IMG/VR virus record: IMGVR_UViG_3300048114_000266
Coordinates: 1 to 51,354 of that record
Source of the DNA: a virus
Reading direction: 5' to 3' (one strand)
Length of the DNA: 51,354 nucleotides
The translations under genes and the position numbers were made by a program. Under the pieces are notes generated by a model. The model did not search any database. It was not told the origin of the DNA and saw only the letters and a program-made list of their open reading frames with translations. Shown piece by piece: positions 34,357-40,538 of this stretch (positions are counted from its first letter, which is position 1; every line of letters begins with the position of its first letter).

Positions 34357-34574
34357 TTGTACGGGCCGAATTCTTCGTCGCCGTGTTCGTCTTCGAAGAC
34401 GCCGATAGCGTATAGGGCCAAAGCCCCGACCCCAGCGACCGATAGCCCGCCGACCGCTACGCCGGCCCACATGCCGGCCACGCGCATGGCTAAGCCCGAC
34501 GCCCCAGCGACGAATGCCACGACACCCGCGACAGCGATAGCGGCCACGGGGACGGCTATGTGCTTGGTATTCAT
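34353..34574 (-). CDS. Small membrane protein
   Basis: ORF track, 73 aa, two hydrophobic helices. Confidence 0.45.
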   Translation of the reverse strand: MNTKHIAVPVAAIAVAGVVAFVAGASGLAMRVAGMWAGVAVGGLSVAGVGALALYAIGVFEDEHGDEEFGPYK

Positions 34575-35377
34575 GTGTTCGTGTCTAACAAGGGCGCTTG
34601 CATGAATTTAGTGTTCACCCGGCCGTCGTCGCGTTCGGTAAAGACGTGGTACGGGTTCCCGTGGCCGGTGACGAACCGCACGTAGTCTTCGCTGATTGCG
34701 TCGACAATATTCGGCATGTATTTGTTCGACATGCGGGCTTCGGTGAACGATTCGGGCGGGTCTTGAAGCCATTCGAAGCCGTCGTCGTCGTGTAGTTTCA
34801 CGCGGGCGCTGTCGTTATCGCCCTTGCCTTCAAGGACGAACGTACCGACGTCGTCGTCAGACGCGACGAAGTTCCCTTGCCCGCTCCCCGCGCCGGATAG
34901 TTCCGCGACGTCGGTCCCACGGTCCCACCGTTCGACGGGAATGGTCACGAAGACGTTATACCCGTGTTCGTCTTTGACCGGCGGGACGTCGACCGGCGAC
35001 CCCTTGACGCTGTCGGGGTCGACACCCGACATTTCGTATTCGACGCCGTCGGCCTTGAAGTCTAAACTGTAATTATCCCAATTGTAATCTAACTGAACGA
35101 CGTCGGCGTTTTTCGCGATACCAAGCAATTCGTCTAACTTGCCGGTGTCGACGCCAATCGCGAAGGTGTCTTCGACTTCGTAGTGTTCGAAGTCGGTCGC
35201 GTCGACGGCTTGCCGCGACAGCGCCACGTTCGCCGCGTCTTTCTTGCGAACGCGAAGGCGGTCGGGTTCGAATTCGAACACGGCTTCTAAGTCGGGCGAC
35301 ACGGCGTCGACGCCTTCGGTAATCGTTTCCCAAATGCTTGCGTCGGCAATCGTTTCGACAGTAGGTTCGTTTGTCAT
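34571..35377 (-). CDS. pcna: PCNA-like sliding clamp
   Basis: ORF track, 268 aa. The segment RLRVRKKDAANVALSRQAVDATDFEHYEVE...FAIGVDTGKLDELLGIAKNADVVQL follows the pattern I recall for haloarchaeal PCNA N-terminal domains; alignment done by eye only. Confidence 0.55.
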   Translation of the reverse strand: MTNEPTVETIADASIWETITEGVDAVSPDLEAVFEFEPDRLRVRKKDAANVALSRQAVDATDFEHYEVEDTFAIGVDTGKLDELLGIAKNADVVQLDYNWDNYSLDFKADGVEYEMSGVDPDSVKGSPVDVPPVKDEHGYNVFVTIPVERWDRGTDVAELSGAGSGQGNFVASDDDVGTFVLEGKGDNDSARVKLHDDDGFEWLQDPPESFTEARMSNKYMPNIVDAISEDYVRFVTGHGNPYHVFTERDDGRVNTKFMQAPLLDTNT

Positions 35378-35438: not shown

Positions 35439-35521
35439 TGCGACGGGCCGGATTCGAACCGGCGAACCCCTACGGGACACGGTCTTAAGCCGTGCGCGTT
35501 TGGCCACTTTGCTACCGTCGC
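35439..35521 (-). tRNA. tRNA-Leu, anticodon UAA
   Basis: Hand fold of GCGACGGTAGCAAAGTGGCCAAACGCGCACGGCTTAAGACCGTGTCCCGTAGGGGTTCGCCGGTTCGAATCCGGCCCGTCGCA: 7-bp acceptor stem, anticodon stem CACGG/CCGTG with loop CTTAAGA, long variable arm, T-arm GCCGG-TTCGAAT-CCGGC. The D-stem is weak. Confidence 0.7.
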
Positions 35522-35765: not shown

Positions 35766-36224
35766 CTACCCACTATCAGACACGGGGGCGACCCCGTCGT
35801 CGTCTAAGTCCGTGGCCGTGCGTCTGACGAATTCCCGAACCGCTTCGACGTCCGGGCGGCCCGGCGTGTCTTGTAACGTCGCGACCGTCGCTTGGTCGAC
35901 CGCCGCGTCGAATTCGGGAGCGTTCGCCGCTTCTTCGAAGGCGACACGGTGGTCGTCGACCTTTTCGATAGCGACGTCGGCCCATTCGGGTAGGTCTTCG
36001 TCGTCGATTGCGTCAAGCGTGGCCGCGTAGACGCGGGGTTCGGGCACGTTCACTTCGGCCGCAAGCGTCGGCACGTCGACTTCGGGGACGCTGACGTCGA
36101 ATTTTACCTTCGTCCGAAGTTCGTTCGTCCCCAATTCGGACGCCTTTGGCTTCGTCTTGCGGATTTTCAGGTCGCCCGTTTTCCAATCGACGACTACCCA
36201 CCCGGTAATCTCCTTGTCAGTCAT
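35766..36224 (-). CDS. Hypothetical protein
   Basis: ORF track, 152 aa; ATGA overlap with the upstream gene. Confidence 0.5.
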   Translation of the reverse strand: MTDKEITGWVVVDWKTGDLKIRKTKPKASELGTNELRTKVKFDVSVPEVDVPTLAAEVNVPEPRVYAATLDAIDDEDLPEWADVAIEKVDDHRVAFEEAANAPEFDAAVDQATVATLQDTPGRPDVEAVREFVRRTATDLDDDGVAPVSDSG

Positions 36225-37642
36225 TCGTACCGACCCCGAAGTTCAAGGCCGCCGGTATAGTCGGGAATGTGGGCATACGCGTCGTCGACTAACGCCGTAA
36301 TCAGGTCGTCTTTGTCGGGCTGTTGGCCGACGTCGACCTTCGGGCGTTCGGCCGCTATGACTTTCAGCGCGTTATACGGCAAGAAGCCGTCGTCGTCGGC
36401 CGCGTCGAAGGCTTCGCGACGGTCTTGCACGGGAATGTCTCCGCGCCCGAATTCGATTCGAAGGTCGGGACCGTCGTCGTTCAGTACGTCAGCGTGGTGG
36501 GGGCCGTCGTCTTCGTCGTCGGCGTATTCGTGGTTTGCGTCGGGGCCGACACGCGGGTCGTGTTCTTCCCAATTGTCGACGCCAATCCACATGTCGCACG
36601 GCTTGCAGTAGCGTTGCGCCCCAGCGTCAGATAGTTGGCCGTGGTTAACGCGGGCACCATTCGAAGTTTCGCCGGGTGGCCCGCCGCTATCCGTGTCGGT
36701 ATCCGCTCCCCGTTCGGCCAAGTCGTCGGCGACGTCGGCGTCGGTCGCGTCTTCTTCTTGCATGTCGATTTGTTCGGCCGCGCTTTCCGATTCGGGGTCG
36801 GGTTCGTCGTCGGGAAGCGCGTCGTCGACGTCACCGCCGTCGATATAGTCGACGCCGTCGTCGGGTTCGTGGTCGGCTAAGGCCGTCTGATTCGGGTCGT
36901 GACGTGGGTCGTCTTCGCTGATTGGGTCGCCGGGTTCGACTATGTCGACGTCGTCGCGAACGGTGTCGTAGTCTTCGGCCCACCCCGGCACGTCCGGGTC
37001 TTCTTCGGTCGCTTCGGTGCCCGTCGTGAACACGTTCCGCGTCACGTAGGCGTAGCCGATAATCGCGGGGCGACTGTCGCCCGCGCCGTTCGGGTGAATG
37101 ACCCACACGCGGGTACGAAGCGGTTCGATAACGGGCGGCGGATTGCTGTCGGAAACGGGGATTTTGAGGTTCAGCCCACGGTCCCGACATTCTTCGATAT
37201 AGTCTTCGGGCGTTTCCCAATTGGTCGCGCCGACCGACATTAGGACGTCGTGGGACCGGGCCGACGTTATGTCGGCGTAGTGGTCGCCGTCGAAGCCGTA
37301 CCGCGACAGACGGTCGAAGTGGTCGGGAATGTCTTCGCCGGGCGTGGTCGTGTTCCCGTCGGCGTGATAGTGGGCCGCGAACGAATTGCCGGGGAATGCT
37401 TTCCACCCCGGAATAATCGCCCCGCGCCCCGTGTGTTCGCGGTATTCGACGGGTTCGTCTAATTCCACGAAGCGCGGTATCTCCCCACCTTCGGCCGACA
37501 GCGCGGCGACGTCGCTACGAATGTAGCATGATTGTGGCTTTAGGTGGCCGCAACCACGTTCCCGGTTATCTATGCTTTCGCGTTCGTCGCCGTCGGTCGC
37601 CTTGCCTAAGACTTCGTCGACGGCGTCGGTTAGTGTCGTCAT
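36221..37642 (-). CDS. Large acidic protein with a C-terminal motif shared with the TFB-like protein
   Basis: ATG at 37642 within ORF track 36221..37651; C-terminus PYNALKVIAAERPKVDVGQQPDKDDLITALVDDAY. Confidence 0.55.
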   Translation of the reverse strand: MTTLTDAVDEVLGKATDGDERESIDNRERGCGHLKPQSCYIRSDVAALSAEGGEIPRFVELDEPVEYREHTGRGAIIPGWKAFPGNSFAAHYHADGNTTTPGEDIPDHFDRLSRYGFDGDHYADITSARSHDVLMSVGATNWETPEDYIEECRDRGLNLKIPVSDSNPPPVIEPLRTRVWVIHPNGAGDSRPAIIGYAYVTRNVFTTGTEATEEDPDVPGWAEDYDTVRDDVDIVEPGDPISEDDPRHDPNQTALADHEPDDGVDYIDGGDVDDALPDDEPDPESESAAEQIDMQEEDATDADVADDLAERGADTDTDSGGPPGETSNGARVNHGQLSDAGAQRYCKPCDMWIGVDNWEEHDPRVGPDANHEYADDEDDGPHHADVLNDDGPDLRIEFGRGDIPVQDRREAFDAADDDGFLPYNALKVIAAERPKVDVGQQPDKDDLITALVDDAYAHIPDYTGGLELRGRYE

Positions 37643-37700
37643 GGTTCGCACCTTGCGACCTATCGTTTCGTCGTAGGGGGTAAAAGCGTGTCGGTAATAT
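37643..37700 (-). promoter_or_regulatory. Promoter-leader cassette (variant)
   Basis: ggtgcgaacc box directly abuts ATG 37642; accgacacgc-TTTTAcc and TATATTA lie further upstream. Confidence 0.45.
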
Positions 37701-37840: not shown

Positions 37841-39358
37841 CTATTCGTCGTCGTAGTCGACGCCGGGGAGGTTCGTTAGGTTCCACCCGTTCGACGACAT
37901 GCCCGTCCCGGCCGAATGCGTGTCGTCGCACGACGGGCACGAAAGACCCAGCGACCGACTGACTTCCGTGCGGCGGCCGGCCGAATAGTGGGACGTGCGT
38001 AGCATGGGAACCTTGTCAGCGCCACACGTCGGGCACGTCGACAGCGCGTCGAAGACGTCGCGACCCTTGTCCGTGGCGACCCACGCCGCGTCGGGGTCGT
38101 CGACGTCGGTATCGCGGTCGTCGGCGCGGGCAATCAGCCCCGTGTCTTCGGCGTCGCGTAGCACCGTGCGGAAGTAGCGGAACTTGTGGGCGAACCCCTT
38201 CGGGCGGCGTAGTCCCGTGCCGGGCTTTCCCGTGTCGCCGCGCCCCGTCGAAACGCGACCTTGTTCGCCGGTCTTGACCGGGCCGACGTCTTCGGGGTCG
38301 ACTTCGTCGTCGCTGTCGAACATGCCGCCGTCGGTCGCGGCGTCGACGCCCGCCACGTAGTTGCCCCAGTAAATCACGTCGCGAAGAAGCGACGTGATAT
38401 GATTCGCGTCGAAGGACTTGTGTTCAGACATGCGCGCTTCGACGTCGTCGGGAAGGTCGGCGTCGTCGACCGACCACACGGTCGCGCCTTCGCACGACGG
38501 GCACACGTCGCCGAAGTGTTCGTGCGTCTTCTTGGCCGGCGTTTCCCATTCGTCGCCGCAACGGGAGCATTCGAACGTGTCGACGTAGGCTTCGGCGGTC
38601 TTGTTCATGTCGTCGTCGTATTCCGGGCTGACGTGGGCCTTGTCGTTCACCGCGCCGACGTATTTCTCAAGCGCAAGCGTGCGAACGACGTTCGCGAACG
38701 TCGTCAAGTCGTCGTCTTCGTAGTCGTCGACCTTCGCTTCCCATTCGTCGACGTCTTCGAAGTCAGTCGACACGCCGTCGTCGGGAATAGTGGCGCGGTA
38801 GAAGGTCGGCGCGTCGGCGTCGGTCGGGTCGACGTCGTCGCGGTCGGTCATGCGGCGGCCGACGACGACTTCGAAGGGGCAATCGTCTTCCGGGCACGTA
38901 TGCCGCGCCGTGTGGTCGTCGTCATATTCGGCTTCGTGGCCGCCGTGAACGGGGCACGTCACGCGGCCGGCGAACGATAGCGATTCGACGGGCGCGTCGC
39001 GGTCGTAGGATTCGACCACCTTGTGAACGATTTGGCCATCTTCGACCGTCGTGTGCGTGTTCCGTTCGTGGCGGACCATGAACGTCGTGTCGCTGTCGCT
39101 GACGTGACGAAGGTAGTGGTCACGGTCGCCGTGTTCGTCGTCAAGCACCGCGTCGACGGTGACTTCGCCGCCGTCAGCGACGGCGTTCCGGGCGCGGAAT
39201 TCAGCGATTGCGGCTTCGGCGTTGGCCCGAAGCGTGTCGACGGCCGGGGCGTCGTCGGGGAGGTTCGCCGCGACGGGGGCGACTTCGTTAATGTAGGCCG
39301 CAAGGCGGGCGGTCGAAAACCGTTCGACGTCGACGTCGGCTTCGGTGGTTTCGGTCAT
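37841..39358 (-). CDS. Large hypothetical protein with several Cys pairs
   Basis: ATG at 39358 within ORF track 37841..39370; begins MTETTEADVDV; motifs CPVHGG, CSRCGDE, CPSCEG, CPTCGAD. Confidence 0.6.
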   Translation of the reverse strand: MTETTEADVDVERFSTARLAAYINEVAPVAANLPDDAPAVDTLRANAEAAIAEFRARNAVADGGEVTVDAVLDDEHGDRDHYLRHVSDSDTTFMVRHERNTHTTVEDGQIVHKVVESYDRDAPVESLSFAGRVTCPVHGGHEAEYDDDHTARHTCPEDDCPFEVVVGRRMTDRDDVDPTDADAPTFYRATIPDDGVSTDFEDVDEWEAKVDDYEDDDLTTFANVVRTLALEKYVGAVNDKAHVSPEYDDDMNKTAEAYVDTFECSRCGDEWETPAKKTHEHFGDVCPSCEGATVWSVDDADLPDDVEARMSEHKSFDANHITSLLRDVIYWGNYVAGVDAATDGGMFDSDDEVDPEDVGPVKTGEQGRVSTGRGDTGKPGTGLRRPKGFAHKFRYFRTVLRDAEDTGLIARADDRDTDVDDPDAAWVATDKGRDVFDALSTCPTCGADKVPMLRTSHYSAGRRTEVSRSLGLSCPSCDDTHSAGTGMSSNGWNLTNLPGVDYDDE

Positions 39359-39420
39359 AGTGGTTCGCACCTACTACCCACTAACAGGGCTACGGTAATA
39401 AAGGTGTCGGCGTTGCACCA
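39359..39420 (-). promoter_or_regulatory. Promoter-leader cassette
   Basis: Gene-strand cgccgacacc-TTTATTA-ccgtagccctgttagtgggtagtaggtgcgaaccact-ATG. Confidence 0.6.
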
Positions 39421-39441
39421 CGGGTTAGGTATTGCCTGATT

Positions 39442-39458
39442 GGTATATTAGCGACATA
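39442..39458 (+). promoter_or_regulatory. BRE/TATA-like promoter of the TFB-like gene
   Basis: cgacatac-TTTTATG about 35 nt upstream of ATG 39489. Confidence 0.45.
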
Positions 39459-39488
39459 CTTTTATGCCGGTCGGCGGTACGTGTCGGT

Positions 39489-40538
39489 ATGGAAACGGAA
39501 CCAGATACCGACGCGACCGACCGGATTCGTTCGATTGCCGAACGGGTCGGGTTCGACGACAGTATCGGCGACTTGGCTACCCAAGTGTTCACGAACGCCG
39601 TCGAAGAAGGCGTCGTCACCGCCGTCGTCGACCGCGACGAAAGCGGTCGCTTCGAAGGTGAAACGCGGAACTACCCGGCGGCCGCATACCCGGCGGCCGT
39701 GTATGCCGCCGCGCGGATTCGTGACATTCCGACCAAGCCGTCCGAAGTCGCTGACGCGGCCGACGTCGACGCTGACGTCGACGCTGTCGGTGACTATTAC
39801 AAGGACATGCTTGGGGCGCTACCCTACACCGTCGAACCGGAAGACCCGGTCGATTGGGTGCGCCGGCTTTGCGACGACTTGGACGTGTCCCCCGGCTTCG
39901 AAACCGACGCCGTCGACTTGTGCGGCGACGCTGTCGGTGCGAACCTGCATAACGGCAAGGCCGTGTCCGGGTTCGCCGCCGCCGTCGTCTACGCGACGTC
40001 GGAATATCGCGACGCTGACGTCGGGCAAGACCGTATCGCCGAAGTCGCCGACGTGTCGCCCGTGACGATTCGGAACCAGTACCGCGACGTCTTGGAATTG
40101 TGGGAACGGGCGGCCGAACCGGGCGACCCCGACGTGATTCGGGCCGCCGTTAACGACGTGTGTGACCGTATCGACGGGCTTCCCTCCCGCGTGCGGGCCG
40201 ACGTCGCCGACCTTGCCGCCGACGCTATCGACGCCGACGCCGACTTCGTCAGTAACACCGACCCCGACGGCGTGGCGGCCGGTATCGTCTACGTGGCGGC
40301 GAAAGACGCCCGCGTCGACGTCAGTCAAACCGAAGTCGCTGACGTCGCGGGCGTGTCGAAGTCGACCGTCGTGAACCGGGTAAACGACGTCCGCGATTGG
40401 CGGCGTCGGAAGGACTTCGAAGCGAAGGAATACAATACGCTAAAGCAAATCGCGGCCGACCACGGCGTCGACGTCGGGCAACAGCCCGAACGCCCCTATC
40501 TTATCGACCGCTTAGTCGAAGCGGGTGTCGACGCATGA
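39489..40538 (+). CDS. TFB/TFIIB-core-like transcription factor with no N-terminal zinc ribbon
   Basis: First ATG of ORF track 39432..40538. SGFAAAVVYATSEYRDADVGQDRIAEVADVSPVTIRNQYRDVLEL closely follows the pattern I recall for the second cyclin repeat and HTH of archaeal TFB; two further similar modules are present. The N-terminus has no Cys pairs. Confidence 0.6.
   Translation: METEPDTDATDRIRSIAERVGFDDSIGDLATQVFTNAVEEGVVTAVVDRDESGRFEGETRNYPAAAYPAAVYAAARIRDIPTKPSEVADAADVDADVDAVGDYYKDMLGALPYTVEPEDPVDWVRRLCDDLDVSPGFETDAVDLCGDAVGANLHNGKAVSGFAAAVVYATSEYRDADVGQDRIAEVADVSPVTIRNQYRDVLELWERAAEPGDPDVIRAAVNDVCDRIDGLPSRVRADVADLAADAIDADADFVSNTDPDGVAAGIVYVAAKDARVDVSQTEVADVAGVSKSTVVNRVNDVRDWRRRKDFEAKEYNTLKQIAADHGVDVGQQPERPYLIDRLVEAGVDA

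Follow-up and report, generated by a model that had tools for sequence, protein, structure and literature searches.

The two carrier genes and their shared tail

The 51,354-bp stretch analysed here (hereafter the window), which comprises positions 1 to 51,354 of the IMG/VR virus record IMGVR_UViG_3300048114_000266, encodes two otherwise different proteins that share a tail ~35 residues long. One is a large protein encoded on the minus strand (36221..37651; 476 aa when started at GTG), the other a TFB-like protein encoded on the plus strand (39489..40538). An earlier model-made reading of the letters alone (the sequence-only reading) had pointed to such a common tail, and the sequences it quoted are indeed present in both proteins. 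In the large protein, the motif (PYNALKVIAAERPKVDVGQQPDKDDLITALVDDAY; PYNALKV...VDDAY) lies at 36275..36379 on the minus strand and covers residues 425-459 of the 476-aa open reading frame (ORF), about 50 nt away from the interval 36224-36330 given previously. It is not the end of this protein, as had been assumed, since a 17-residue extension (AHIPDYTGGLELRGRYE; 36224..36274, minus strand) follows before the stop codon at 36221..36223. In the TFB-like protein, the motif (EYNTLKQIAADHGVDVGQQPERPYLIDRLVEAGVDA; 40428..40535, plus strand) forms the true C-terminus.

When the two whole proteins were compared by composition-adjusted BLASTP, the tails were found as the only significant high-scoring segment pair, with 22/46 identities and an E value of 2e-5. 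A plain shuffle test of Smith-Waterman scores for the whole proteins yielded weaker support (P~0.004-0.013), because both sequences are strongly biased in D, E, A and V, and shuffled sequences scored up to 109 compared with the observed 80. The shuffle values are what could be cited for a chance or compositional artefact of acidic Ala/Val/Asp-rich halophile proteins, and pairwise comparison alone was only moderately convincing. We therefore rely on two non-circular profiles, one built from the tails of large-protein homologues on other contigs, neither window sequence being included, and one from seven TFB tails on other contigs, each of which was searched against 1164 six-frame pieces of the window. 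With the large-protein-family profile, the TFB tail scored 41 bits (E=7.2e-12); with the TFB-tail profile, the large-protein tail reached E=3.4e-11; and no third copy was found among the 1164 pieces, the next of which had an E value of 0.15. An artefact is already refuted, and its probability practically nil, by the composition-adjusted BLASTP value, by the independent profiles, which pick out the two tails (E~1e-11) and no other piece of the window, and by the invariant positions, which recur across 120 unique sequences. The similarity thus held in the statistical alignment test on which the sequence-only reading had made it depend, and the homology of the two tails is decisively established, with exactly two copies in the window.

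The large protein is composed of three parts. If started at ATG 37642, as in database entry P0001, it has 473 aa, and its conserved N-domain (36893..37585, minus strand; approximately residues 20-250 of P0001) was modelled with predicted local distance difference test (pLDDT) values >90. The N-domain family comprises 80 homologues, including HHTV-1 gp52 and an HRTV-25 protein identified by tblastn. No match to the N-domain was obtained in Pfam, PHROG or PADLOC scans, nor was one found in the PDB by sequence or by fold; on the predicted model, it appears to be a conserved and confidently modelled fold unmatched among PDB structures. The N-domain is joined to the C-terminal domain by an acidic, predicted disordered linker (36518..36865, minus strand), which has pLDDT <50 (residues ~267-372), holds a small CxxC hairpin and differs in length and sequence between homologues. 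The folded C-terminal domain (36272..36505, minus strand) contains a beta-hairpin, the helix QDRREAFDAADDD and the tail motif, arranged as a three-helix unit. Its pLDDT ranges from 82 to 97 across P0001 residues 380-460, and an EFGRGDIP..R..SF stretch is kept in close homologues. The tail was present on approximately 50 of the 80 homologues; those without it either stop after the N-domain or bear other C-terminal modules, namely a Cys-rich PF27025, a DUF4326 or an 'SVVGPY.VEV' domain, the last in HHTV-1 and HRTV-25. A pattern [FY][VI]P[AD][YF], restricted to the large-protein lineage, opens the 17-residue extension right after the last helix of the tail and appears as AHIPDY in the window (36245..36262, minus strand) and as AFVPAY in most homologues (P0003-P0037); the pattern may serve as a short linear motif for docking.

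The TFB-like protein has 349 aa from ATG 39489, as in database entry P0122, the mechanically called ORF being started at TTG 39432. Pfam assigned no family to the large protein, and in the TFB-like protein it detected TFIIB repeats (PF00382; 85.6 bits, E=2.4e-24, three stretches), which identify cyclin repeats, and weak helix-turn-helix matches. In an alignment to a cellular TFB, repeat 2 is matched by residues 116-204 and again by an additional, repeat-2-like copy at residues 205-305. The protein begins with cyclin repeat 1, possesses a third cyclin-like repeat and is without zinc ribbon or B-reader. Neither PF08271 nor a Cys within the first 60 residues was found. This architecture without a zinc ribbon is common to all 25 viral TFB-like homologues, and a PF08271 zinc ribbon is present in five of five cellular haloarchaeal TFBs. 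The tail directly follows the last cyclin-like repeat and its helix-turn-helix, and it is carried by 24 of the 25 viral proteins compared with none of the five retrieved cellular ones. Without zinc ribbon and B-reader, canonical recruitment of RNA polymerase is unlikely; therefore, the TFB-like protein is probably not a canonical initiation factor, and it may instead be a decoy, a repressor, an origin factor or an Orc6-like DNA factor.

Both genes lie within an early/replication-type module of the window. The window is a complete-looking metagenomic contig (JGI) with a G+C content of ~61%, very acidic predicted proteins and capsid/tail-like as well as replication-type genes, and its only distant protein matches are to the haloarchaeal tailed viruses HHTV-1 and HRTV-25. 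On these grounds, we assign it to the haloarchaeal tailed viruses or proviruses. A megablast search with the region returned no match in a phage collection. A PCNA homologue (34571..35377, minus strand), a tRNA-Leu with anticodon UAA (35439..35521, minus strand) and a 152-aa ORF (35766..36224, minus strand) lie on one side of the large-protein gene, in that order, and a 509-aa Cys-rich ORF (37841..39370, minus strand) lies on the other. This last ORF is divergent from the TFB-like gene, and the 118-bp intergenic region between them (39371..39488) contains AT-rich TATA-like elements on both strands, with TTTTAT about 25 nt upstream of ATG 39489 and TTTATT on the opposite strand, which suggests leaderless divergent early promoters.

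Fold and superfamily placement of the tail

AlphaFold models made with homologue alignments predict that the tail has two helices, YNALKVIAA (helix 1) and KDDLITALVDD (helix 2), joined by an extended loop of 12 residues (ERPKVDVGQQPD). In the full-length model, numbered as in P0001, helix 1 spans residues 423-431, the loop 432-443 and helix 2 444-454, with pLDDT values of 91-97, in line with the helix-extended-helix-like tail that had been proposed for these otherwise different proteins. A separate model of the 64-aa large-protein tail (mean pLDDT 95, predicted template modelling score 0.80) has helices at 11-23, 29-37 and 50-61 and an extended segment at 38-49. The predicted structure thus has the two helices, the extended loop of ~10-12 residues and the unit length of ~35 residues that characterize the helix-extension-helix (HeH) fold. 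Among 120 unique tails, the conserved positions were Y5 (91%), N6 (84%), L8 (90%), K/R9 (99%), A12 (92%), D18 (78%), G20 (88%), P23 (99%), K/R25 (66%) and L28 (92%). The polar and basic ones (N6, K/R9, P23 and K/R25) we take to be equivalent to the basic positions that are conserved in the SAP/Rho_N consensus.

In a Pfam scan of 36 tails, all matches remained below the gathering thresholds, which are 24.9 bits for Rho_N (PF07498), 23.9 for SAP (PF02037), 28.9 for HeH (PF12949) and 26.6 for Ish1 (PF10281). Ish1 was matched by nine tails (best E=1.3e-4), SAP by seven, Rho_N by seven (best E=2e-3), and HeH and SAP_new25 once each, together with many scattered weaker families; accordingly, membership in Rho_N, SAP, HeH or Ish1 was not obtained for any of the 36 tails. 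Pfam presumably places SAP, Rho_N, HeH and LEM in one helix-extension-helix clan, the placement of Ish1 being uncertain. A closer relation emerged from proteins that do pass the Rho_N threshold, namely ORF13 of the Halorubrum virus HRTV-DL1 (28.9 bits) and gp53 of Staphylococcus phage BE01 (48.8 bits). HRTV-DL1 ORF13 aligned end to end and in register with the tail profile at 16-18 bits, and hhalign of the halophile tails against an alignment of these two Pfam-verified Rho_N domains, rather than against the full Pfam profile, gave 93.8% probability and E=1.7e-7 over 34 columns in register. The search for Rho-N, SAP or HeH-type domains that the sequence-only reading had recommended was therefore successful as to a relationship with Rho_N and failed as to membership, since the window tails lay under every Pfam threshold. 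Taken together, the tail is very probably a mobile HeH-type domain, and it appears from the profile comparisons to be a divergent, halophile-adapted branch of the HeH superfamily that formally belongs to no existing Pfam family.

HRTV-DL1 ORF13 (L029:2309-2629) and BE01 gp53 (L028:442-732) are each ~100 aa long, have a C-terminal Rho_N domain and are encoded just downstream of the major capsid gene, so that the place of a small Rho_N protein beside this gene is conserved between one archaeal and one bacterial tailed virus. A literature search retrieved nothing specific on HeH or Rho_N domains in archaeal viruses.

With Rho_N as the nearest verified Pfam family, and with phage proteins bearing similar tails annotated as Rho termination factors, the tail might be thought to act like the N-terminus of bacterial Rho, in RNA binding and termination. 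In bacterial Rho, these N-terminal helices are a mere add-on to an OB-fold RNA-binding domain and a RecA-type ATPase ring. Pfam found no OB-fold or ATPase domain in either window protein, the phage proteins owe their annotated name to the domain model and, to our knowledge, archaea have no Rho. A Rho-like role is therefore a remote prospect.

Distribution and descent of the module

When 1.84 billion representative proteins were searched exhaustively with a tail profile, 44 matches were obtained, three of which were low-complexity artefacts. The carriers included TFB-like proteins, distant homologues of the large protein and very large viral proteins with an internal copy of the tail. In addition, a metagenomic PCNA (P0095; Pfam PCNA_N and PCNA_C) has the motif inserted at residues 102-134, within its N-terminal domain, an insertion that the PCNA of the window (34571..35377), unlike P0095, is without. 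Two DUF5305 proteins (P0087 and P0102), which are haloarchaeal-type two-pass membrane proteins, carry the tail at the C-terminus, on the cytoplasmic side according to the predicted topology. Many stand-alone tail proteins of 54-140 aa were found as well, one protein has two tandem copies, and lysine-rich non-halophile versions occur, including in bacterial and phage-like proteins. As to the strict form of the tail, the TFB-type pattern had 267 matches in 185,579 reference genomes, none of which was confirmed, and a search of IMG/VR with the TFB-type tail alignment yielded six loci only. On these counts, the strict-form family appears to be small and mostly viral or metagenomic, and the tail overall looks like a mobile module that is real but fairly ordinary.

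Tails on both proteins were found in seven related genomes (the window, L001, L002, L003, L005, L006 and L011), and in L007 both proteins are without one. In most loci checked, the two genes are near each other, in opposite orientation and in the same module, L011 having them in the same orientation. Such joint occurrence would be explained if the tail were a protein-protein docking module, similar to LEM-BAF, by which the TFB-like protein, the N-domain protein and sometimes PCNA attach to one common hub of host or viral origin, for example RNA polymerase, a chromatin protein or the scaffold of a replication factory. The HeH fold has a protein-binding precedent in LEM-BAF (PMC3337167), and the net acidity of the tails would also suit docking. 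However, the co-occurrence is partial and confounded by common descent: in L027, the tail is carried by the N-domain protein and not by the TFB-like protein, and L021-L025 have a tailed N-domain protein and no TFB-like gene within 7 kb. Moreover, across the seven genomes, no within-genome covariation of the two tails was observed (46.9% identity within vs 44.9% between genomes; permutation p~0.19-0.23), although covariation would be expected if both tracked one fast-evolving partner, and the spread of the tail to non-halophile bacterial, phage-like and membrane proteins argues for a generic ligand. We consider a dedicated docking function a serious, if unlikely, alternative.

The same data bear on the suggested tie of the large protein, through its tail, to transcription. 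The same module is found on PCNA, on DUF5305 membrane proteins, on large unrelated viral proteins and on many small stand-alone proteins; tailed large-protein homologues occur in loci without a TFB-like gene within 7 kb; one locus has a TFB-like protein without a tail; and the two tails do not covary within genomes. The data thus lend no support to a specific link of the large protein with the machinery of transcription.

Each tail has its own sequence signature, ...PER.YLIDRLV.AGV-end in the TFB type and ...PS..DLI.A..DDA.AFVPAY... in the N-domain type. One short stretch could speak for recent duplication or gene conversion within this genome: the core encoding VDVGQQP, GTCGACGTCGG(C/G)CAACAGCCCGA, is identical at 22/23 nt between the two genes, and few homologues have GQQP. 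Across the motif in full, matches are limited to 60/102 nt and the same codon is used in only 10/18 identical residues, and because of this low match the shared core is not evidence for such an event. Furthermore, each tail groups with its own orthologues in the seven genomes, and same-genome pairs are no closer than cross-genome pairs (p~0.19). Recent duplication or conversion is accordingly highly improbable, and the two tails appear, as judged from these comparisons, to represent separate, old orthologous lineages.

Proposed role of the tail and its known relatives

On balance, we lean slightly towards the combined reading that the tail is a mobile HeH-type domain acting as a generic DNA tether; its tether component, taken by itself, we regard as evenly poised. 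The domain is very probably an autonomous unit of ~35-40 residues, made of a helix, a 12-residue extended loop and a second helix, and usually packed on a preceding helix. Haloarchaeal tailed viruses and some other halophile and non-halophile genomes have fused it, mostly C-terminally, to many unrelated proteins, and in the lineage of this contig the genes for the TFB-like and N-domain proteins of the early/replication module probably acquired it independently and long ago. With the nearly invariant K/R of YNxLK in helix 1 and the P-[ST]-[KR] that caps helix 2 at its N-terminus, it could serve as a low-specificity anchor on double-stranded DNA that raises the local concentration of its carrier there, as SAP and yeast HeH domains do. 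The two carriers would be linked neither to each other nor to RNA polymerase, and in the TFB-like protein the tail could extend the DNA contacts beside the last cyclin-like repeat and its helix-turn-helix.

A tether to double-stranded DNA is favoured because most partners of known function (TFB and PCNA) act on DNA and because basic positions are conserved. The K/R position in helix 1 and the helix-2 cap P-[ST]-[KR] escape the acidification typical of halophile proteins, and the tail sits at the end of flexible acidic linkers. SAP binds DNA. HeH folds are DNA-binding folds that anchor chromatin, and the HeH domains of yeast Lem2/Man1 tether chromatin to a membrane protein (PMC3337167).

Several observations weigh against this assignment or its proposed function. 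The LEM variant of the HeH fold binds a protein, BAF (PMC3337167), the tails are net acidic, and their occurrence on membrane proteins and small capsid-adjacent proteins is unexplained by a pure role in replication or transcription. As to the fold, the window tails gave no Pfam match even at E<=10 and stayed under every threshold in NCBIfam, as they did in PHROG, and PDB sequence-profile searches with two tail profiles returned noise only. The modelled tail is that of the large protein, the TFB tail lying outside the models.

A more far-reaching idea is that the tails constitute a virus-encoded addressing system, in which a dedicated HeH variant would gather early proteins on one platform, as an archaeal-virus analogue of LEM-BAF. 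The proteins so gathered would be the TFB-like factor with three cyclin repeats and no zinc ribbon, the N-domain protein with its structurally novel fold and, in some viruses, PCNA, and the platform would be a host chromatin protein or a viral factory for replication and transcription. We judge this improbable. If it were true, the TFB-like protein would be a decoy or an origin-binding factor and not an initiation factor.

The tail belongs to a well-known kind of module, and its recognition is useful and unsurprising to a specialist. It adds a halophile-specific branch of the SAP/Rho_N/HeH domains that is unannotated and missed by the Pfam, NCBIfam and PHROG libraries searched, and defining this branch would help to annotate haloarchaeal virus genomes, in which most genes are hypothetical. 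At least two uncharacterised viral proteins are flagged as probably DNA-associated, and attention is drawn to an unusual viral TFB derivative that lacks a zinc ribbon and has an extra cyclin repeat and an HeH tail.

Compared with known systems, the TFB-like protein has bona fide cyclin repeats like those of archaeal TFB and eukaryotic TFIIB (PF00382 with PF08271), and its identity to the second repeat of a haloarchaeal cellular TFB is 42%. It differs from them in lacking the zinc ribbon and B-reader, which recruit RNA polymerase, and in having a third cyclin-like repeat and the HeH tail, whereas cellular TFBs are without the tail. The tail itself most closely resembles Rho_N (PF07498), as represented by HRTV-DL1 ORF13 and BE01 gp53, being equal in length and register, usually C-terminal, and built of the same succession of helix 1 (..L[KR]..A), extended loop and helix 2 (K[DE]ELI.AL). 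Unlike Rho_N, the window tails start helix 1 with Y-N and have a loop of the form [DG]-V-D-V-G-x-x-P instead of G-[yf]-s-x-m, and the tails are borne by TFB-like, PCNA and N-domain proteins rather than by small capsid-adjacent proteins. With SAP (PF02037) and the yeast HeH, LEM-like domains (PF12949), the tail shares a two-helix HeH fold of ~35 residues, as predicted by its models, the character of a promiscuous module of DNA-associated proteins and basic residues conserved within helix 1 and where helix 2 begins; these are eukaryotic families, in contrast to the net-acidic haloarchaeal-virus tail, and no significant sequence match links them to it. The DUF5305 proteins, with their predicted cytoplasmic tail, may be likened to the HeH/LEM proteins of the eukaryotic inner nuclear membrane, which tether DNA to the membrane.

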